A DNA stretch of 64,000 bases, taken from the NCBI GenBank assembly GCA_944391515.1, contig CALXTW010000005.1:5127-69126 (forward strand), read 5' to 3'. Below are positions 9,687-64,000 of this stretch, piece by piece. The DNA is from an uncultured Alphaproteobacteria bacterium. GTDB taxonomy: Bacteria > Pseudomonadota > Alphaproteobacteria > RF32 > CAG-239. The notes beneath the pieces are model-generated. The model was not told where the DNA came from and made no database searches. It worked only from the letters and a program-made list of their open reading frames with translations. The translations under genes were made by a program, and so were the position numbers. Within the stretch, counting starts at the first letter, position 1. Each line of letters opens with the position of its first letter.

Positions 9687-11033
9687 TTAAAAATATTGGA
9701 TATAAAGGAAAACGGTTGCTATTGCCACGCTGGTCAGCATGACCGGAATTGACCACAGCAAGAACCGCATAAAGTGAATTGGGTGACCTTCACGTTGTGC
9801 CATGCCGGCAACAATGACGTTGGCCGAAGCACCAATCAAGGTTCCGTTGCCGCCAAAGCAAGCACCTAAGGACAATGCCCACCATACAGGCATCATAGCT
9901 TCGCGGCCGCCCATGTCGGCTTCCATTGATTTTATCATCGGAATCATGGTGGCAACAAACGGAATGTTATCAATGGCACTGGAGAGTATTGCTGAAGTCC
10001 ATATAATCAATATGGTGGCTTTTTCAATACTGCGATCCGTTAATTCAATAAACATTTGTCCGAGCATTCTTAATACTCCGGTTTCTTCCAAACCATAAAC
10101 AATGACGAATAAACCAGAGAAGAAGAAAATGGTGGTCCAATCGACTACGCCTAAAATTGATTCTACTTTGTGGTCTCTTTCAGAGTGAGAGTTGCCCAAG
10201 GTGTAGAGCAATAATAAAACAGCCGCTCCGAAGATGGCAATCGTACCGTTGGCGATATGCAGATGTTCTGCGGAAATAAAGCCGGCAATTACCGTGAACA
10301 AAACAAATAAGGACTTAATGAGTAAGCCTTTATCTGTAATCGACTCGGCAGCGTTAATCTTCATTACTTCTACTTGACGGCGGAGTGTGGTTTTAATTCT
10401 TTTTTTATAAACAATGTCAAATGCCAAAATAATTACAGCCATCGTTACAATTACGATTGGGGTTAACTCTTTGACGAAGTCCATAAATGATAAACCCAAA
10501 GATGAACCGATTAAAATGTTCGGTGGGTCACCAATGAGAGTTGCCGTACCGCCAATGTTGGAAGCAAAAATTTCCAACAAAAGGTATGGGTAGGGGTTAA
10601 TATCTAATTTTTGAGTAATCTTAAAAGTAACCGGAGCAATCAGTAAAACGGTTGTAACGTTATCCAGAAATGCTGAAAACATAGCTGTTACTACGGCTAA
10701 AACGACCAATAGACCTCTCGGGTTGGCTTTTACTCTTTGAGCGCCCCAGATGGCAACGTATTGGAACATACCTGATTTTTCGGATATGCCGACAATCGTC
10801 ATCATACCAACGAGCAGTGAAATGGTGTTAAAGTCAATACCCTTGAGGGCTTGGGCTTGGGTTAATATTCCGCTGAAAATCATTACGCAAGCGCCGAGCA
10901 AAGCGACAACCGCGCGATTGAGTTTTTCAGAGAATAAGATGAGGTAGCAGACAACAACTATAGAGGTTGCGACTACTTTCGGGTCAAGTCCCCAAATCAG
11001 ATTGGCGGCTTGAGCAAGATGTTCTGCTTGCAT
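9687..11033 (-). CDS. ArsB/NhaD-superfamily (CitMHS-like) ion/anion permease, paralog 1
   Basis: 448 aa and polytopic, with motifs IGGTATLIGDPPNILIG and DNIPFVATMIP typical of this permease superfamily. Confidence 0.8.
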   Translation of the reverse strand: MQAEHLAQAANLIWGLDPKVVATSIVVVCYLILFSEKLNRAVVALLGACVMIFSGILTQAQALKGIDFNTISLLVGMMTIVGISEKSGMFQYVAIWGAQRVKANPRGLLVVLAVVTAMFSAFLDNVTTVLLIAPVTFKITQKLDINPYPYLLLEIFASNIGGTATLIGDPPNILIGSSLGLSFMDFVKELTPIVIVTMAVIILAFDIVYKKRIKTTLRRQVEVMKINAAESITDKGLLIKSLFVLFTVIAGFISAEHLHIANGTIAIFGAAVLLLLYTLGNSHSERDHKVESILGVVDWTTIFFFSGLFVIVYGLEETGVLRMLGQMFIELTDRSIEKATILIIWTSAILSSAIDNIPFVATMIPMIKSMEADMGGREAMMPVWWALSLGACFGGNGTLIGASANVIVAGMAQREGHPIHFMRFLLWSIPVMLTSVAIATVFLYIQYF

Positions 11034-11086
11034 TTGTTTCTTATTCCTCTTTGTAGTTAATTCTAATACATCTTTTTTATATAACG

Positions 11087-11121
11087 AAAGCTCCTAATTT
11101 TGTGTTAAAATTAGGAGCTTT
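11087..11121 (-). terminator. 15-bp perfect hairpin between the two permease paralogs
   Basis: aaagctcctaatttt / aaaattaggagcttt with loop gtgtt, 25 nt past the stop of paralog 2. Confidence 0.6.
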
Positions 11122-11145
11122 GTTAGAAGTTTGAGGCTTTATTTT

Positions 11146-12495
11146 TTACATAAAGTGTCTGATATGTAAATATAAAGCTGCAATGCCGACACTACCCAAC
11201 ATTACGGGCAATGACCACAGCAAGAACCGCATAAAGTGTATCGGTTCACCGTGGCGTTGCGACATACCGGCAACAATGACGTTGGCAGAAGCGGCGATAA
11301 GTGAGCCATTGCCGCCATAGCAAGCACCAAGTGATAAAGCCCACCAAACCGGCATCATGGCTTCACGTCCGCCCATGTCAGCCTCAATGGTTTTTACCAA
11401 AGGTATCATGGTTGCAACAAAGGGAATGTTATCTATAGCTGTGGAAACTAATGCAGAAACCCAAACAATTAGCATTGTTGTTTTTTCGATACTGCCTTCG
11501 GTAAACTCTGTAAACTTGTGTCCCAGAAGTTCTAATACACCGGCTTCTTCCAAACCATAAACAATAGCAAAAAGGCCGGCAAAGAAGAAAATGGTGGTCC
11601 AATCTACCAAATTAAATGCTGATTCAACCTTGTGGTCGCGCTCAGAATGTGTGTTGCCAAATGTGTACAGAAACATCATAACTGCTGCTCCAAACATAGC
11701 TATTGTACCATTGGCAATATGGAAATGTTCGGCCGAAATAAAGCCTAAAATGACGGCTGTTAAAACAAATAAGGATTTTTTTAACAACGCCCAATCTGTA
11801 ATGGTGTCAACGGCTTTAACTTTCATAACCTCTACTTGGTTGCGTTTATCGGTTTTGAGTTTGCGACCATAAGCAAAGTCAAATACCAAAATCAAGACCA
11901 ACATAGTTACAGCCACAACAGGGGTTAGCTCATTTACAAAATCCATAAAGGATAAGTTAAGTGCTGAACCGATTAAAATGTTCGGTGGGTCACCTATGAG
12001 GGTTGCCGTACCGCCAATGTTGGAAGCAAAAATTTCCATTATCAGGTAAGGGTAGGGGTTAACCTTGAGTTTATCGGTAATTTGAAATGTTACCGGCACA
12101 ATTAACAATACCGTGGTCACATTATCCAACAGAGCCGAGAAGACAGCTGTTATCAAACCAAGTGTGAATAGCAGACTTCTGGGGTTGGCACGGGTTTTGT
12201 GAACTGCCCAAATGGCCACATATTGGAACATACCTGATTTTTCGGCAATGCCGACGATAATCATCATTCCGGTTAAAAGGGCCAATGTGTTAAAGTCAAT
12301 ACCGGCAATGGCTGCTTCTTGGGTCAAAACACCGGCAAATATCATAATGCAGGCGCCGACAAGAGCCACAACCGCACGATTGAGCTTTTCGGTAAAAAGT
12401 ATCAGGTAGCTGATTATTAAAATAGTAGAAGCCACTATCTTAGCATCCCAGTTGAAAATAACCGATGATGCGTGGCTTAGTTCTTCAAGAGGCAT
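11146..12495 (-). CDS. ArsB/NhaD-superfamily permease, paralog 2 (tandem duplicate)
   Basis: 449 aa and collinear with the 9687-11033 product, with long identical blocks such as SERDHKVES, GREAMMPVWWALSLGAC and PIHFMRFLLWS. Confidence 0.8.
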   Translation of the reverse strand: MPLEELSHASSVIFNWDAKIVASTILIISYLILFTEKLNRAVVALVGACIMIFAGVLTQEAAIAGIDFNTLALLTGMMIIVGIAEKSGMFQYVAIWAVHKTRANPRSLLFTLGLITAVFSALLDNVTTVLLIVPVTFQITDKLKVNPYPYLIMEIFASNIGGTATLIGDPPNILIGSALNLSFMDFVNELTPVVAVTMLVLILVFDFAYGRKLKTDKRNQVEVMKVKAVDTITDWALLKKSLFVLTAVILGFISAEHFHIANGTIAMFGAAVMMFLYTFGNTHSERDHKVESAFNLVDWTTIFFFAGLFAIVYGLEEAGVLELLGHKFTEFTEGSIEKTTMLIVWVSALVSTAIDNIPFVATMIPLVKTIEADMGGREAMMPVWWALSLGACYGGNGSLIAASANVIVAGMSQRHGEPIHFMRFLLWSLPVMLGSVGIAALYLHIRHFM

Positions 12496-16691: not shown

Positions 16692-16719
16692 CCGTTTCCC
16701 TTTCTGTTTGATAAGGGCC

Positions 16720-17017
16720 GTTCTGTTGCTAGGTGGCCCAAACCCCACTTACGACTATCCAAAGTCATAAGAATTTAGATTTGTCGCTTTAGACTAAGCA
16801 GCCAAAGCAACTGGAGCTACGTTATTATCGTTAGCATTCATTTTAATTTGAACCGATAACGGTGGTATCTCACCGGACACAGCTCATATCTTTACTGCTC
16901 CCAGTCAATCCTGTTTCACCCCCGAAGATTTTTAATTGGTGGAGGTGCCGGGTACTGCCCCCGGGTCCTAAAAGCCTATTTTATACTGCCTCTAGTGTCA
17001 TAGCTGATTTCTCAGCG
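16720..17017 (-). ncRNA. ssrA: Two-piece (circularly permuted) tmRNA gene; ends approximate
   Basis: Read on the minus strand. The acceptor piece ends ...GGACCCGGGGGCAGTACCCGGCACCTCCACCA at 16937. After a 13-nt linker the coding piece starts GGGGGTGAAACAGGATTGACTGGGAGCAG at 16923. GGGGGUG pairs with CACCUCC and includes G3:U70. The tag ORF GCT AAC GAT AAT AAC GTA GCT CCA GTT GCT TTG GCT GCT TAG encodes ANDNNVAPVALAA (16835-16794). Confidence 0.9.
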
Positions 17018-17023
17018 GAAAAT

Positions 17024-17052
17024 AGTATAGCTTTAATCTTGTGAGATTTCAA
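17024..17052 (-). promoter_or_regulatory. Sigma-70 promoter of ssrA
   Basis: On the minus strand: TTGAAA (17052-17047), 17-nt spacer, TATACT (17029-17024). Confidence 0.6.
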
Positions 17053-31708: not shown

Positions 31709-31785
31709 GCGCCCTTAGCTCAGCTGGATAGAGCAACAGCCTTCTAAGCTGTGGGTCAGACGTTCGAATCGTCTAGGGCGCGCCA
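31709..31785 (+). tRNA. tRNA-Arg (anticodon TCT), CCA encoded
   Basis: Acceptor gcgccct/agggcgc, anticodon stem cagcc/gctgt region with loop cTTCTAa, and T-arm agacgTTCGAATcgtct. Confidence 0.9.
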
Positions 31786-31793
31786 TAAAAAAA

Positions 31794-32133
31794 GCCTCCA
31801 TCAGCGGAGGCTTTTTTTATGGCGCGGTGAAGGTTGGTTAACGTGCTCAGCCGCGATAGCGGTGCAAGCACGTGTTAACAACCGAACGACTGGCGCAAAT
31901 CGGCTTGTCCGATGCCGCGACACGCCATGCCTCCATCAGCGGAGGCTTTTTTTATGGTGCGGTGAAGGTTGGTTAACGTGCTCAGCCGCGATAGCGGTGC
32001 AAGCACGTGTTAACAACCGAACGACTGGCGCAAATCGGCTTGTCCGATGCCGCGACACGCCATGCCTCCATCAGCGGAGGCTTTTTTTATGGCGCGGTGA
32101 AGGTTGGTTAACGTGCTTAGCCGCGACAGCGGT
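31794..32133 (+). repeat. Tandem repeat, 135-bp unit x about 2.5, starting at the tRNA-Arg terminator hairpin
   Basis: gcctccatcagcggaggc starts at 31794, 31929 and 32064, an exact 135-bp period. Copies 1 and 2 differ by one base. Copy 3 diverges after about 70 nt. Each copy holds a terminator-like hairpin with a T7 run and a second imperfect hairpin (gttaacgtgct...agcacgtgttaac). Confidence 0.95.
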
Positions 32134-32262
32134 AAACGCGGCGCGTTTAATCGCAAGACTTAGCTGTTTTTACTGTTCGTGCCTAGACACCGCGATGCTG
32201 CTTTTTTCTTTGCTCAATCATTGAGACTTGAGTTTTTTTATAAACGCGGCGCGTTTAATCGC
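32133..32262 (+). repeat. Second, degenerate direct repeat (22-bp exact core taaacgcggcgcgtttaatcgc twice, 108 bp apart)
   Basis: Exact 22-mers at 32133-32154 and 32241-32262. Flanking similarity (ctgttcgtgc) suggests an older duplicated unit. Confidence 0.8.
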
Positions 32263-32430
32263 CAAGCGTAGCACGCTTGACCGCACAAATTGATGACGTG
32301 GCTGTTCGTGCTCTGAAATCGCGTTGCCCTCTCCTTTATCTGTCGTAAATGTCGCTGATACTTCGTTATTGTTTTTTCTTTTGTTTCTTGCTTATTTATG
32401 CTATTCTGTGTTTAAGTTCTTGAAAATAGC

Positions 32431-34008
32431 ATGGAGAATTTTTTTATGGCGGAAATGATTAAAGAAGAAGTTGTTACTTTCGAACAATGTGACTTTGATG
32501 CTCAAAGAAATATGGTTGTTCAGTATTTTTCAGATGGAAGTAAAATTGAATTAACCAAAAGAGGGGAGAAAGTGGCTTTTAAAAAAGTTATTCATGCAGA
32601 CGAAAGCTATGAATTATATAATGCCAAACAAGTTAAAATTGAAGAACTGACCGGTGACGGAACAAAAAGAAAATTTGACGGTGTTTCCGGTATCTTGCTA
32701 GAAGAGATATGTAAAGATGGAAGTGTTACAAGCTTTCATGCAAACGGGAATATTTCATCACGGAGATGGAATAATAATTCTTGTTATGTTAGCTATTATG
32801 AAAACGGGCAATTAGCACGCAAACAAGAAGATGGATATGAAATTTCTTTGAACTCTAAAGGTGTGGTTAATTATGAGTTTAAGGATGGAAAATTAACAAT
32901 CAATCCAGATTATTTTTCCTTGTATCGATTGGGAGTCAAAATTCCTCAAAGTGAAACTCATTGGGAAGAAAAGGGCGCTCTTTCTCCTAAAAAAAAGACG
33001 TTGTTGTGTTTGGGCGGAGATCAATCCAAAACGGCTAAATCCGCTAATGGAAATATTAAACCTTTTTTGTTTGTGTTGGGGTTGTCTCCGGAACAAATTG
33101 ATAATATGCAACTGTGTTCTTGTTACCGCCCTTTAAGTATGGAACTTAATAGCTTACTTGTTGAAGCAGAGCAGTATGAGCAACAATTTCATGATGATTA
33201 CAAACGAGAGATTTTGCAAAAATTTATGCCTTTTATGGCACAAGTGAAAAATGGAAAATTGGAGAAATATAGTTCTGAAGAGCTTTGTGCGAATTTCAGA
33301 AATATCATTATTCAAGCTCATTGTTATGGAGCTAATGATTTGCCGGTCTATTCTCAAGTGTTTAAGGAAGCCATGACCTCGCTGGGCTATTCTCAAAAAG
33401 AACAGAAAAATGCTTTACGCCAGGTTATCTGTATTACCAATAATTCTCAACGAGAATTTAGAGATAATTTAGGTTTTACCATGATTCATCGCTATTCGGT
33501 GAAAGATGGTCAATTTGAACCTGAATATGAAACCAAATTTTCCGATGGTTATCCTGAATTTTTGAAAGATATTGCTGAATATACCGCTCAAAAAGGTGAA
33601 AAAGCGGCCTTTGTTCCAATGAAGAATAATGAAGTCTTGATGGTGTTTGATAAGGTTTTGATTGACGGTGGTGAGCATAATGCTGGTTTTTGGACGACAA
33701 ACGAAAATAATTTAACAGAAGTAGGAAGAAAACAAGCCTTGCTTATGAAGAATATTGGAACATTTTGGTATAATAATCAAAAAGATTTGCCTGATGTTGT
33801 TAATTTATTAGAAGAATGTTCAAAGCAAAACGGTTTGGAAGATTTTGTTCAAAACTCTCTCCAACAAGGTAAAAAACTCAAAAAAAGTCAACATAATGTT
33901 TTGGAAAATCGACATATTTTGAAAAGTGCCAAAAATAAGTTTAAAAGCCCTGATTATGAGCCTGAGAAAACTGGTATTTATAAATTGCTTTCGCAAAATG
34001 TGAGATAA
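32431..34008 (+). CDS. Hypothetical 525-aa protein with N-terminal MORN/YwqK-like repeats and an unassigned C-terminal domain
   Basis: Repeats of the type ...DGS.I.L...GE.V.F..., FHANGNISSRRWNNNSCYVSYYENGQLARKQ in the first ~170 aa. The remainder has no recognised motif. ATG at 32446 is an alternative start. Confidence 0.65.
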   Translation: MENFFMAEMIKEEVVTFEQCDFDAQRNMVVQYFSDGSKIELTKRGEKVAFKKVIHADESYELYNAKQVKIEELTGDGTKRKFDGVSGILLEEICKDGSVTSFHANGNISSRRWNNNSCYVSYYENGQLARKQEDGYEISLNSKGVVNYEFKDGKLTINPDYFSLYRLGVKIPQSETHWEEKGALSPKKKTLLCLGGDQSKTAKSANGNIKPFLFVLGLSPEQIDNMQLCSCYRPLSMELNSLLVEAEQYEQQFHDDYKREILQKFMPFMAQVKNGKLEKYSSEELCANFRNIIIQAHCYGANDLPVYSQVFKEAMTSLGYSQKEQKNALRQVICITNNSQREFRDNLGFTMIHRYSVKDGQFEPEYETKFSDGYPEFLKDIAEYTAQKGEKAAFVPMKNNEVLMVFDKVLIDGGEHNAGFWTTNENNLTEVGRKQALLMKNIGTFWYNNQKDLPDVVNLLEECSKQNGLEDFVQNSLQQGKKLKKSQHNVLENRHILKSAKNKFKSPDYEPEKTGIYKLLSQNVR

Positions 34009-34197: not shown

Positions 34198-34533
34198 TTA
34201 TTTGCAGCTTTTTACGGCTTCATAGATTTTTTTGAAGGCTTCGGCAACACCTTCGGCAGTATAGGTGCGACCTTCAATCATGGTGCGGCAGAGTTCAAAA
34301 GCAATTTCTTTATCGGAATTACAACCGCATCCGCAATCGCAATCACAATCGCATTCGCAACTGCACGGGCAGAGGTTGTTCTCATGGCAGCCACAGCCGC
34401 ACTCACAATCACAATCGCAACCGCAAGGGCAGGGATTGTCTTCTCGGCAACCGCAATCGCAATTTTCATCGCAATGGCAGTGGTGATTGTGTTCTTCTTC
34501 GTGACAACAGCAACAATTTTCGTGTTTTGACAT
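34198..34533 (-). CDS. Cysteine/histidine-rich metallothionein-like protein, 111 aa
   Basis: 28 Cys and 7 His, with 26 of the Cys in residues 7-71 as alternating C-x-C runs. Two internal repeats of C(R/H)E(D/N)N(P/L)CPC(G/S)C... A non-Cys helical C-terminal ~40 aa. AGGAAAGGA lies upstream, 16 nt after the trxB stop. Confidence 0.7.
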   Translation of the reverse strand: MSKHENCCCCHEEEHNHHCHCDENCDCGCREDNPCPCGCDCDCECGCGCHENNLCPCSCECDCDCDCGCGCNSDKEIAFELCRTMIEGRTYTAEGVAEAFKKIYEAVKSCK

Positions 34534-47929: not shown

Positions 47930-48853
47930 TTATTCATAAGTTTCTATTTCAATATCTCCTCGTTGGTCTAAAAGAATTCTTTGCTTTACAGATTTTACAT
48001 CATAATAAAATGCCCCTTCAGCATTCTTAATATTTTCATCAGCTCCAGCTTTTATAAGTTCATTTACAATTCTATCATTTTCTACACTATAAGCCCAAAA
48101 TAATGCTGTATTTCCATCACTATCTTGAATATTGATATCAGCACCTTTTTGAATCAGATATTTCAAAGGTTCCAATGTTATTTCCTGAGGATTTGCAGCC
48201 GCAAGATGCAAAGGAGAAGTTTCGAAAGTTCCTGCTTTCAAATTAATATCAGCACCGCTTTTAACAAGAAAATCTATAATTTCCATAAAATATGGAATAA
48301 ATTTACGATATGCTAGCTGCATTGCTCCTTTTATAGCTATTCTGATTTCCTCTCTTTCTTCAGAAGTAATTTCTCCGCACGGTTTAGAAACAATTCCTGG
48401 AAAATTACATTCTCCGATTTTATTTTTTATTTTTTCATCAATTGCAATATTTACATCTCGCTCCATATCTGGAATAAGAGATGGCAAAGCAACAGCCCAA
48501 TGCAATGCAGGCATTGATATTCCAATACAAGAAACTTTGTTTATATTTGCCCCTGCTTTTGCTAACAGTTTAATTTTTTCCAATGCATATGTTGGATGTT
48601 TATTAGCATTTCGACTGTATACAGCACTTTTAACCGCAACATTTAAAAGTGTGTTGCACTGATAAACATTATTCACATCATAACCACTTTGAATAAGTTT
48701 TTTAACATCATCAGGAGTTCCGGTTAAAACAATTTCATGAGCTTGTTCATCGCTAATTTGAGAAGAGGTATTTTGTGCCTGCAAAGAAGCGGTGCTTAAC
48801 GTCACAATTACAAAAATTAAAAAGCCTATAGTTTTCTTCATTGTTTTTTCCAT
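47930..48853 (-). CDS. Secreted ankyrin-repeat protein
   Basis: Signal peptide (MKKTIGFLIFVIVTLSTASLQA; the ATG at 48841 may be the true start). ANK repeats, e.g. TSPLHLAAANP...YLIQKGADINIQDSDGNTALFWA...LIKAGADENIKN. Confidence 0.85.
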   Translation of the reverse strand: MEKTMKKTIGFLIFVIVTLSTASLQAQNTSSQISDEQAHEIVLTGTPDDVKKLIQSGYDVNNVYQCNTLLNVAVKSAVYSRNANKHPTYALEKIKLLAKAGANINKVSCIGISMPALHWAVALPSLIPDMERDVNIAIDEKIKNKIGECNFPGIVSKPCGEITSEEREEIRIAIKGAMQLAYRKFIPYFMEIIDFLVKSGADINLKAGTFETSPLHLAAANPQEITLEPLKYLIQKGADINIQDSDGNTALFWAYSVENDRIVNELIKAGADENIKNAEGAFYYDVKSVKQRILLDQRGDIEIETYE

Positions 48854-61450: not shown

Positions 61451-61504
61451 TCTGTTCGGTTATGTTGGGGAACGTAGCCTGTTGCATATAGGGGAGATAT
61501 GTAG

Positions 61505-61906
61505 ATGGATTTGAATAATCTTTCTATTTTTAATATGGCTAATACAGAAATGGCCTATTTGACTGAGCGTCAAAAGGTTTTGGCAACGAATATTGCCAAT
61601 GCCAATACGCCTCATTATCTTCCCCAGGATTTAGAAAAACCAAGTTTTGCTAATGTTTTGCGGACTTCTTTGCCGATGACGGTAACCAATGAAAAGCATT
61701 TGAGCGGTTTGCCCAGTCGTAACGGTGGATTTCGACTCTATACGCCCAAATCTGATACCGCTTTGACGATTGATGGTAACGGCGTTGTCTTGGAAGACCA
61801 AATGAATGAAGCCAGCAAGACCAAAAGTGACTATAACCGCGTGTTGACGATTTATGGCAAGTATAAAACCATGCTGCAAACCGCAAACACAAAAATTAAC
61901 GCCTAA
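61505..61906 (+). CDS. flgB: Flagellar basal-body rod protein FlgB
   Basis: 133 aa; the N-terminal ...LTERQKVLATNIANANTPHY... rod-protein motif; first gene of the flgBC-fliE order. Confidence 0.85.
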   Translation: MDLNNLSIFNMANTEMAYLTERQKVLATNIANANTPHYLPQDLEKPSFANVLRTSLPMTVTNEKHLSGLPSRNGGFRLYTPKSDTALTIDGNGVVLEDQMNEASKTKSDYNRVLTIYGKYKTMLQTANTKINA

Positions 61907-61916
61907 GGGATAGAAT

Positions 61917-62330
61917 ATGGCCGGAGATTTATCAGTTAGTGCAGATATTGCCGTATCAGGGATGAAGGCACAAGCCGAAAGGTTGCGCATTATCTCTGAA
62001 AATATGGCTAATGCCGACTCGGTCGGGGTTCGTCCCGGTGATGATCCTTATCGTCGTCAGGTGGTCACTTTTAAAGACTATATTGATAAAGAAACCGGTG
62101 CCAGAATGGTGAAAGTGGATAAGGTGATTAAAGATAAATCCGAATTTCCACTGAAATATGAGCCAAATAATCCATTGGCAAATGCTCAAGGATATGTGGC
62201 TCAGCCTAATGTTAATCCGTTGATTGAAATGATGGATATGAAAGAGGCTCAACGCAGTTATGATGCAAATTTGAATATGATGCAAACTGCAAGAGATATG
62301 AATTCAAAAGTATTAGATTTATTGAAGTGA
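61917..62330 (+). CDS. flgC: Flagellar basal-body rod protein FlgC
   Basis: 137 aa. ...RLRIISENMANADS... and C-terminal GYVAQPNVNPLIEMMDMKEAQRSYDANL are typical of FlgC. Confidence 0.9.
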   Translation: MAGDLSVSADIAVSGMKAQAERLRIISENMANADSVGVRPGDDPYRRQVVTFKDYIDKETGARMVKVDKVIKDKSEFPLKYEPNNPLANAQGYVAQPNVNPLIEMMDMKEAQRSYDANLNMMQTARDMNSKVLDLLK

Positions 62331-62345
62331 TAAATGGGGATGTAA

Positions 62346-62666
62346 ATGACAAATAATATTTCTAGTGCGTTAAATGCTTATCAACAGGCTCTGAGCCGTA
62401 TCGGCGCAAAAATGCCGGTGGAGGAAAATGCTCAGGTTTCTTCAGGTCAGTCCGATTTTCAGGCAATGGTAGAGAATGCTTTGACAAATGCCGTCGATAT
62501 TAACAAAAAAGCAGAGAGTCTCTCTATGCAAGGTATTGCCGGAAAAGCTGATATTCAAGATGTGGTTTTGGCTGTGGCTAATGCCGAAATGGCTTTGGAA
62601 ACAGTTGTGGCCGTCAGAGATACCGCTATTAAAGCTTATAAAGAAATTATGCAAATGACAGTGTAG
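62346..62666 (+). CDS. fliE: Flagellar hook-basal body protein FliE
   Basis: 106 aa. The C-terminal ...VVLAVANAEMALETVVAVRDTAIKAYKEIMQMTV matches the FliE C-terminal signature. Confidence 0.85.
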   Translation: MTNNISSALNAYQQALSRIGAKMPVEENAQVSSGQSDFQAMVENALTNAVDINKKAESLSMQGIAGKADIQDVVLAVANAEMALETVVAVRDTAIKAYKEIMQMTV

Positions 62667-62786
62667 GCTGATTTTGCAGTATTATTATATGCATTGAAAA
62701 GTATTTTGGTGAAAAAATGTGAAATTTTGCAAAAAATACTTGATTAATTATTTTAGTTAGTTTAAATCAATCTTGTTTTTGTTATT

Positions 62787-62872
62787 GCGGCCGTGGCGAA
62801 ATTGGTAGACGCGTAACGTTGAGGTCGTTATGAGCTAAGCTCATGGAAGTTCAAGTCTTCTCGGCCGCACCA
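62787..62872 (+). tRNA. tRNA-Leu (anticodon GAG), class II with long variable arm, CCA encoded
   Basis: Acceptor gcggccg/cggccgc, anticodon stem taacg/cgtta with loop tTGAGGt, variable arm gagctaagctc, and T-arm ggaagTTCAAGTcttct. Confidence 0.9.
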
Positions 62873-63284
62873 TACAAAAATAATGTTATGAGCAAGTGCC
62901 TCGGGAGGTATGAGAGCAGGGTTTTGGCTCAGAAGACTATCCCCTCAAAGATGTAACGCTTGCTGCGACCATTGTCATTGGTCTGGCGCGCTAACATCTC
63001 AAGGATTGTTTCGTAAAAACTCAACGTTGGTTGACTTTTTACTCACAATTCTCGGCCGCACCATACAAAAATAATGTTAGGAGCAAGTGCCTTGGGTAGT
63101 ATGAGAGTAGGGTTTTGGCTCAGAAGACTATCCCCTCAAAGATGTAACGCTTGCTGCGACCATTGTCATTGGTCTGGCGCGCTAACATCTCAAGGATTGT
63201 TTCGTAAAAACTCAACGTTGGTTGACTTTTTACTCACAATTCTCGGCCGCACCATACAAAAATAATGTTAGGAGCAAGTGCCTC
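62858..63284 (+). repeat. Tandem repeat, 191-bp unit x about 2.2, each unit bounded by a copy of the last 15 nt of tRNA-Leu
   Basis: ttctcggccgcacca occurs at 62858-62872 (the tRNA 3' end), 63049-63063 and 63240-63254. The distal ~140 bp of units 1 and 2 are identical, and a few substitutions cluster in the first ~50 bp. The third copy stops about 30 bp after the 15-mer. Confidence 0.95.
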
Positions 63285-63340
63285 AGAAAGAATTGAAAAA
63301 ATATGAGTTTGAAGGGGTATTTGATTAGAAAATATTTTAG

Positions 63341-63368
63341 AAAATCCGTTACAGGATTTATTTTTTTA
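63341..63368 (+). terminator. Intrinsic terminator closing the tRNA-Leu / repeat-array unit
   Basis: Stem aaatcc/ggattt with loop gttaca, followed by aTTTTTTT. Confidence 0.7.
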
Positions 63369-63447
63369 TAAACAATATGGGAATTGCGTAAATCGATTGA
63401 GCTTTAATTTATAAACATTAGTTTATTTTTATTAAGAGGGAGGGGAA

Positions 63448-64000
63448 TATGAAAAAAAATTTGAAAAAACATAGACCAGGCTCTCAGCTCAACAAAAAAC
63501 ACAATCTTCCTAAGAAATCTCATCAAGAACAGTTTTTAGGTATCGGACCGAAAATCATTAATTCTATCCTCATTGGGTTGCATGAGGAAGATTATATTCA
63601 TGTGCGCAAAATTGCCGATGGCTTAGATGAGTATGAACTTGCCAGTTTGCTCGAAAGTTTGAGTATTCATGACCGGCAAAAATTGGTTGAGGTTTTGGGT
63701 AACCGCCTTAATCCTGAAGTATTTCCTGAATTAAATGATGTTGTTCAAGAGCAAATCATTGACAGTATGGATGAAAAACAAATCGTTCATATCGTTAATG
63801 AGTTGGATTCAGATGATGCTGTTGAAATTTTGGAGCATATGGATGATGACGAACAAAAGAAAATTATTCGTCAACTCTCTCCAGAACTAAAAGTTCAAGT
63901 CCAATCGTCTTTAAGCTATCCGGAAGATTCGGCCGGACGTATTATGGAACGCCAATTTGTCAGTATGCCTGACGATTGGACCGTTAAAGAAGCAAAAAAG
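63448..64000 (+). CDS. mgtE: Magnesium transporter MgtE, N-terminal part (continues beyond the window)
   Basis: Absent from the ORF track because there is no stop in the window. AGGGAGGGG RBS with ATG at 63448. The MgtE_N domain (...DEYELASLLESLSIHDRQKLVEVL...DSDDAVEILEHMDDDEQKKII) is followed by the start of the CBS pair (AGRIMERQFVSMPDDWTVKEA). Confidence 0.8.

Follow-up and report, generated by a model that had tools for sequence, protein, structure and literature searches.

The 64,000-nucleotide (nt) stretch of DNA analysed here, called the window below, belongs to contig CALXTW010000005.1 of an uncultured alphaproteobacterium. Near its end it carries a leucine tRNA gene with fliE upstream and mgtE downstream (encoded protein domains MgtE_N, CBS and MgtE). 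Between the tRNA gene and mgtE lies a tandem array with a period of 191 nt, in which each complete unit ends with a copy of the last 15 nt of the tRNA, referred to as the core. This array, and the structured RNA domain that its units probably encode, are the subject of the present analysis. The features of the locus are the following.

62740..62768, + strand: putative tRNA-Leu promoter, TTGATT-17 nt-TAAATC, proposed by eye; the scanner made no call
62787..62872, + strand: tRNA-Leu(GAG), found by ARAGORN and Rfam tRNA; its final 15 nt (62858-62872) are core copy 1
62873..62923, + strand: linker of unit 1, with the AU-rich start TACAAAAATAATG..., differing between clades
62924..63063, + strand: conserved structured domain of unit 1, 140 nt, ending in core copy 2 (63049-63063); RNAalifold consensus, covariation, model R1 174.6 bits, conservation 73-88%
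63064..63114, + strand: linker of unit 2; the five differences between units 1 and 2 fall in the linker region (unit offsets 32-60)
63115..63254, + strand: conserved structured domain of unit 2, with the same sequence as that of unit 1, ending in core copy 3 (63240-63254); R1 174.6 bits
63255..63284, + strand: partial third copy, the first 30 nt of the linker only
63342..63367, + strand: terminator-like hairpin AAATCC-GTTACA-GGATTT, then A + T7, upstream of mgtE (ATG 63450); it forms in the predicted precursor fold

Both ARAGORN and the Rfam tRNA model (62787-62869, 51.6 bits) find the tRNA-Leu(GAG) with encoded CCA that a preliminary description of this DNA had reported. The 191-nt spacing given there for the terminal 15-mer TTCTCGGCCGCACCA is exact, with copies starting at 62858, 63049 and 63240; the chance expectation for any one 15-mer is 6e-5 per 64 kb strand. 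The repeat finder TRF gives a single array (62858-63284, period 191, 2.2 copies, 97% matches, no indels). Five substitutions separate unit 1 from unit 2 (unit offsets 32, 45, 49, 50 and 60), all of them early in the unit as had been described, but the identical distal stretch measures 131 nt and not about 140. The third copy is truncated, retaining 45 nt (the 15-mer plus 30 nt) and diverging thereafter; a decayed third unit further downstream is not claimed, since the global alignment score there was driven by the 30 identical linker bases. The array is also GC-richer than its surroundings (44%, against 21% and 25% in the adjoining spacers and 39% in the whole window), which is the expectation for structured RNA genes of AT-rich genomes.

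The putative promoter is retained upstream of the tRNA in the most distant of the relatives described below (TTGATT-N17-TAAAT in L102, clade 4), and a similar TTGATT box is found in L110. At the other end of the array, the hairpin AAATCC/GGATTT with its T7 is indeed present where a good terminator had been proposed (63341-63368), and it is retained in clades 1-3, but it contains just two G-C pairs and was not called by the scanner. The predicted fold of the whole precursor, in which it forms, consists mainly of mispairing between units. It is also correct that copy 1 reads ATG-TTA-TGA where copy 2 opens a 63-aa open reading frame (ORF), and that the array lacks a conserved ORF. A coding function is in fact ruled out by frame-shifting indels, by a stop codon that a paired, compensatory change creates in L008, and by flat codon-phase counts without codon periodicity.

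An invariant 22-mer from the body of the unit, searched for exactly in one genome per species (185,579 species), occurs in two metagenome-assembled genomes (MAGs) of uncultured proteobacteria, and in these at the fliE-tRNA-mgtE locus only. Further relatives were gathered by exact FliE look-ups, by a metagenome scan for the tRNA 3' half and by look-ups of FliE homologues. The loci form four clades, the host bacteria of which are uncultured and at least partly from the human gut.

Clade 1: the window and L001-L012; unit 191-192 nt; 1 or 2 units; leftover past the last core 30-34 nt
Clade 2: human-gut contigs L021, L035, L060, L061, L073 and L086 (1 unit) and L028, L082 and L085 (0 units); unit 192 nt; leftover about 73 nt
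Clade 3: L058; unit 190 nt; 1 unit; nothing beyond the 15/16-mer repeated
Clade 4: L102 and L103 (FliE 68% identical); unit 167 nt; 1 unit; leftover 36 nt

All four clades share one layout, namely tRNA-Leu, unit(s), leftover, terminator-like hairpin and mgtE. The boundary of the leftover varies by clade (1, 30-34, 36 or about 73 nt past the core) and never falls inside or before the core, and wherever the distal half of the domain occurs, a core copy follows it. Repeated core and linker segments are identical or nearly identical inside one genome and different between clades (L008 being an example). In the same-synteny outgroups L101 and L110-112 there is no unit, and in L110-112 a plain short terminator lies directly 3' of the tRNA. 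Additional FliE lineages (P0010, P0015, P0018, P0022, P0026, P0033 and P0088) had loci that lack the tRNA, or contigs that stop too soon, and gave no further units for the helix P1 described below.

Copy number varies even between close relatives, as the L011 locus (93% identical to the window) has 2.2 copies and the L012 locus (98% identical) has 1.2. That the array could be an assembly artefact, a doubt raised in the preliminary description, is answered by the independent MAG L011, whose 2.2 copies have their own between-copy differences, and by L005, which has at least two units; two-unit arrays thus occur in three independent assemblies (the window, L011 and L005). The copy-number calls as such rest on short-read assemblies. 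Contigs from different samples end in or beside the tRNA-Leu/array (L006, L007, L009, L104, L105 and L114-L116), consistent with a repeat that disrupts assembly, so public MAGs are no reliable guide to copy number at this locus, and some contigs with one unit (L010, for example) or none could have been collapsed during assembly.

The units are not conserved evenly. In alignment A1 of 15 distinct units, the first 54 or so nt (columns 1-54) are variable, and the last 140 or so nt are nearly invariant. The identity of the 140-nt domain is 87-88% in clades 2 and 3 and 73.5% in clade 4, which exceeds that of the flanking genes, mgtE (74-77% and 68%, respectively) and fliE (68% in clade 4). The linker (48-54% and 39%) and the downstream spacer (60-61% and 51%) are approximately at the random level, for which about 48-49% identity is expected. 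The tRNA-Leu itself does not differ among clades 1-3, and its identity in clade 4 is 98.8%.

From these units RNAalifold gives a consensus fold of seven helices, listed here in the coordinates of unit 1.

P1, 62927-62933/63050-63056, + strand
P2, 62943-62945/63002-63004, + strand
P3, 62949-62954/62994-62999, + strand
P4, 62958-62963/62986-62991, + strand
P5, 62967-62971/62979-62983, + strand
P6, 63005-63009/63045-63049, + strand
P7, 63013-63025/63030-63042, + strand

Covariation was tested on a structure-blind MAFFT alignment of the 15 units from the four clades, the clade-4 unit and the L012 variant having been added after the structure was derived. Of its 42 pairs, 15 have changed on both sides, and 98.6% of all cells are paired. 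Shuffled controls give 4.5 +/- 1.2 such two-sided pairs, with 0/500 reaching 15, and sliding the partners by 1-3 columns leaves 0-2. Compensatory pairs, one or more per helix, occur throughout P2 to P7. The central hairpin, for example, changes from GACCA/TGGTC to AGCCG/CGGCT between clades and independently to GACTA/TAGTC in L008, with its TGTC loop retained. The clade-4 unit L102, absent from the derivation of the structure, keeps 36/42 pairs at a domain identity of 73.5% and scores 100 bits with R1.

The alignment also tells on which strand the structure is formed. The pair cells contain 24 G-U and 0 A-C combinations, which means that the structure exists only on the + strand, that of the tRNA. 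The stems vary, whereas the junctions AGAAGACTAT, CTCAAAG and TCTCAA are invariant. Taken together, a selected RNA structure on the + strand is probable. Rfam 15, searched at permissive thresholds over 61500-64000, matched the tRNA alone; its other matches, at E up to 10, lay far below their gathering scores and are irrelevant to the unit. Within the 64-kb window the complement of AGAAGACTAT has no perfect match outside the units, only matches with 1 mismatch. A CsrA-type GGA site was rejected by eye, because GGA becomes CGA in L102 via a compensatory change.

There is a close fit between the copied tRNA tail and the rest of the domain. P1 (8/9 pairs) is formed by the domain start GGCTCAGAA and the initial nine bases of the terminal 15-mer; it closes the domain and leaves GCACCA free. 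The two strands are UUCUCGGCC, the first nine nt of the 15-mer, and GGCUCAGAA, the invariant 5' edge of the domain. On its 3' strand P1 runs on directly from P6-P7, which we liken to an acceptor stem continuing from a T arm. Across clades 1-3 P1 does not vary save in L012, where two core substitutions keep the pairing (U-G to U-A, and G-C to G-U); its single mismatch is shifted by one position in L102. The stretch GGCTCAGAAGAC is complementary to 8/9 nt of the core at the end of the unit, and to 11/12 nt of the T-loop, T-stem and acceptor 3' strand of tRNA-Leu itself. In all clades, an AU-rich stretch comes after each CCA. The 15-mer core thus appears to belong to the domain, since the leftover always ends past the core, L058 keeps only the 15/16-mer, and the L012 changes keep P1.

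What the comparisons show directly is a structure, the strand on which it forms, how well it is conserved, that it stays at one place, and a copy number that apparently varies. On these grounds we tentatively favour, as quite possible rather than probable, the interpretation that the unit is a conserved structured RNA domain in the tRNA-Leu trailer. It would be transcribed together with the tRNA, and tRNA-processing enzymes would release it with a tRNA-like ...CACCA end; beyond the comparisons, this interpretation proposes joint transcription, cleavage at the CCA copies and a role for the released RNA. Co-transcription of the array with the tRNA is plausible. From the tRNA promoter, one precursor would be made consisting of the tRNA, n repeats of the AU-rich linker plus structured domain, and the terminator at 63342-63367. 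As the terminal 15 nt of each domain are those of the tRNA, the pairing in P1 would leave ...GCACCA free and followed by an AU-rich linker, as at the 3' end of the tRNA. This shared 3' context (helix, ...CACCA, AU-rich linker) suggests that the tRNA 3'-maturation pathway would release each unit: an endonuclease would cut in the AU-rich linker, and exonuclease trimming to the CCA beside the helix would yield a discrete, stabilised domain RNA. Unequal homologous recombination between the core and linker repeats could then alter the copy number (0, 1 or 2), and might also homogenise core and linker within a genome while the clades diverge.

Of the two readings offered in the preliminary description, that of tRNA-linked structured RNAs with a CACCA terminus is accordingly the one retained in substance, as the domain is conserved, covarying and strand-specific and ends in the tail. 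It does not hold for a dispersed family, since there is one locus in one lineage.

Several observations weigh against this interpretation. P1 shows no two-sided covariation among the 15 units, though it is the helix that would explain the tail copy; the tail it leaves measures 6-7 nt, compared with 4 nt in a tRNA; and neither ARAGORN nor the Rfam tRNA model recognises the unit as tRNA-like. P7 resembles a weak terminator ahead of the core, so transcripts might stop before the CCA copy. The comparison covers four clades only, of related sequences, and one lineage (L102) supplies most of the new compensatory pairs. In single-sequence folding the + strand is unexceptional (z = -1.2) and the - strand is favoured (z = -2.8), a result that we regard as overridden by the comparative G-U evidence. 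The unit appears to be missing from L028, L082, L085, L101 and L110-112 and is therefore dispensable. Other intergenic arrays of 120-200 nt occur in the lineage, so duplication as such may be a widespread tendency in these genomes.

In a more specific form, which we regard as somewhat unlikely, the units would be a new class of trans-acting RNA (1-2 copies per transcript), finished by the tRNA-maturation enzymes, that borrows the 3'-end identity of tRNA-Leu. It could be a decoy or regulator of an enzyme, toxin or phage factor targeting the tRNA-Leu acceptor end, or else a switch of tRNA-Leu maturation acting through an invariant 12-nt motif complementary to the T-arm and acceptor 3' strand of this tRNA.

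The main competitor is plain tandem duplication of the tRNA trailer by slippage or unequal crossing-over, in which case the stems would be trailer or terminator hairpins kept for termination or stability, with no function of their own. It would account for the terminator-like P7, for the lack of the unit in some strains and lineages, and for a copy number that varies as that of direct repeats should; at least three other, unrelated intergenic arrays are found in the lineage (the tRNA-Arg, L101 and L110/L111 arrays). Nevertheless, we consider it unlikely. A domain conserved above the neighbouring protein genes, between a linker and a downstream spacer at the random level, does not fit such an origin, and seven helices with invariant junctions and 15 compensatory pairs in four clades go far beyond the need of a terminator. 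The simple state seen in the outgroup (L110-112) is a tRNA with one short terminator, and the constant presence of a core after the distal half of the domain is not predicted by trailer duplication.

The other arrays are unrelated to the Leu-trailer unit. In the window, tRNA-Arg(TCT) (31709-31785) is followed by a 135-nt unit repeated 2.5 times (31794-32133, 98% matches, 54% GC; whole region 31709-32330). This unit starts with a terminator-like hairpin GCCTCCATCAGCGGAGGC+T7 and ends with ...ACACGCCAT, re-creating the final five bases of the tRNA and the next base (CGCCAT). One unit folds at z = -5.9, and the related strain L092 has one unit fewer. Further along there is a repeat with 108-nt spacing (32133/32241). 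In L101 (1929-2583), which has no Leu-trailer unit, an unrelated tandem repeat of period 181 (3.6 copies) lies between fliE and the tRNA-Leu promoter; an unrelated repeat of about 120 nt occupies the same interval in the likewise unit-free L110/L111 (1940-2215), with a scaffold gap in L110.

The other preliminary reading was an accretion of miniature att-bounded elements mobilised in trans. In its general form, an element using the tRNA-Leu 3' end as its attP site would have shrunk by decay to some 176 nt enclosed by attL and attR, and would then have been duplicated or would still be mobilised by an integrase whose gene lies elsewhere. Direct repeats of a tRNA gene 3' end are the classic footprint of such integration (PMC5704250, PMC3146451). 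The array has them, running 1-73 nt past the core depending on the clade; L058 repeats the 15/16-mer alone, like an att core, and the presence of the unit is patchy. The att-like anatomy is thus genuine and may reflect a distant origin. The other marks of a cis-mobilizable element (CME) or att remnant are lacking. A 176-nt non-coding unit gives no sign of derivation from an integrative and conjugative element, an integrative and mobilizable element or a prophage: the body 24-mer and the tRNA-end 23-mer have 0 matches in viral contigs, and the unit has none by blastn against phage and plasmid records.

Nor is there any sign of mobility. By exact 22-mer, the two carrier genomes contain no second copy of the body, and no other species among the 185,579 has one. 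Model R1, run on the window, 58 loci with the same tRNA end and 18 further loci, found syntenic units only. No integrase domain is present in the ORFs adjoining the tRNA and transfer-messenger RNA (tmRNA) genes of the window, or at the tRNA-Leu locus in any clade. Instead, the unit is inherited at a single syntenic locus in four clades whose FliE proteins are as little as 68% identical, and a decaying remnant should neither exceed the conservation of the flanking genes nor covary. A duplex circle of 191 bp would also be very small for integrase chemistry. The accretion of elements mobilised in trans hence gains no positive support, and an integration relic is quite improbable.

The same tRNA end probably does serve as an integration site elsewhere. 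In marine metagenome contigs with the same tRNA-Leu 3' half (L033:3532-4776, L050, L068, L072 and L083), an ORF beginning MKYIYKHGNQYWYQR... starts no more than about 12 nt past the tRNA end. It has a DUF6538 match and a weak Phage_int_SAM_4 match and is probably the tyrosine recombinase of an element integrated at tRNA-Leu; the position of this likely recombinase gene directly after the tRNA counts in favour of an integration relic.

Since mgtE comes next on the same strand at every unit-bearing locus, with a terminator-like hairpin between, the domain could alternatively be a cis-regulatory leader that senses a ligand (Mg2+, for instance) and governs read-through into mgtE. Invariant junctions with covarying stems are a riboswitch pattern, and in other phyla mgtE is controlled by a riboswitch, the M-box. 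This explanation is just as doubtful as an integration relic. No Rfam model matches, the M-box included, and the domain is tied to the tRNA end rather than to mgtE. The leftover that separates the terminator from the last domain has its own length and sequence in each clade, which leaves no conserved expression platform. Moreover, the domain is present in 0-2 copies, and the unit-free L101 and L110-112 retain the tRNA-mgtE arrangement. Finally, a folded single-stranded DNA site acting in recombination or replication (compare integron attC sites and IS200/IS605 ends) would suit strand-specific wobble hairpins and a cassette-like tandem layout with changing copy number, but it is very improbable, as no recombinase or transposase is nearby, there is no dispersal, P7 resembles attC core sites only loosely by eye, and multi-helix junctions with invariant single-stranded joints are typical of RNA.

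The remainder of the window holds a few other features. A permuted two-piece tmRNA gene lies at 16703-17029 (- strand), with the tag peptide ANDNNVAPVALAA; a tmRNA in two pieces points to an alphaproteobacterium. The region 9690-12437 contains direct-repeat pairs (9690/11152 and 10711/12173; 265-300 nt, 71-75% identical, 1462 nt spacing), probably two tandem paralogous genes, and a degenerate 6-nt-based repeat of about 200 nt at 34298-34494 (CAACCGCATCCGCAATCGCAATC...) is possibly a low-complexity coding stretch. Two proteins are of a kind common in host-associated bacteria: an ankyrin-repeat protein with a signal-like N-terminus (47930-48853, - strand), and a 525-aa protein adjoining the tRNA-Arg array (32431-34008, + strand), which has a sub-threshold MORN-repeat match alone.

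Among known systems, the anatomy of the array recalls cis-mobilizable elements and tandem accretion at tRNA or tmRNA 3' ends, which share tandem 3'-end repeats downstream of the gene and strain variation (PMC5704250); the Dehalococcoides ssrA islands, for example, have 20-bp copies of the ssrA 3' end at their borders (PMC3146451). Such att-flanked elements extend over kilobases, are dissimilar among themselves, and possess, or formerly possessed, cargo and genes for integration (PMC5704250, PMC3146451). The units described here, in contrast, are 176 nt long, alike in kind, free of genes and vertically inherited at one locus, with a structure under selection. The M-box (ykoK) Mg2+ riboswitch is a structured RNA of similar size upstream of mgtE; the unit differs from it in lacking a match to any Rfam model, in its anchoring to a tRNA end, in its variable copy number, and in the sequence between last domain and terminator, which is different in every clade. 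In ToxI/ToxN arrays, tandem structured-RNA repeats are likewise followed by a terminator and a gene, and the repeats are processed to unit length, but ToxI-type units measure about 34-45 nt and precede an endoribonuclease toxin gene, whereas the unit here is 191 nt long and precedes mgtE.

Functional RNAs in tRNA trailers and tRNA-like RNA ends are both known kinds. In plant mitochondrial t-elements and in the MALAT1 mascRNA, a helix with a tRNA-like 3' strand lets the tRNA-maturation enzymes set the end of a transcript that is not a tRNA. These are eukaryotic or organellar and are recognisable tRNA mimics, whereas in the unit only the 3' strand is copied from the adjoining tRNA, the opposite strand is different, and tRNA finders are blind to it. 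What is undescribed in Rfam 15 and in the literature searched is a domain of several helices, in one uncultured proteobacterial lineage, that can be amplified in tandem and has a literal copy of the tail as its boundary. If our favoured interpretation is right, this is an uncatalogued structured RNA whose 3' boundary is a literal copy of the tail of the neighbouring tRNA, and a bacterial non-coding RNA that defines its own end through the tRNA-maturation machinery, which to our knowledge has so far been known mainly from organelles and eukaryotes. Direct repeats of tRNA 3' ends, routinely taken as integration scars, could then also mark a conserved RNA module.

The closest counterpart in position is 3'ETS-leuZ of E. 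coli. According to PMC6191717 (citing Lalaouna et al. 2015), RNase E cuts this 3' trailer off the glyW-cysT-leuZ transcript, giving an RNA with a role of its own. Like the unit, it lies between a tRNA-Leu 3' end and the operon terminator on the strand of the tRNA, but it is short and single-copy, acts by pairing with small RNAs, and has no copy of the tail at its end (PMC6191717). The trailer described here, known from its sequence, lies between the tRNA 3' end and a terminator-like hairpin and instead comprises a 140-nt, seven-helix domain in 0-2 repeats, each ending in the last 15 nt of the tRNA. Were its release to follow the course proposed above, it would be a structured and tandemly amplifiable addition to the few functional tRNA trailers known.

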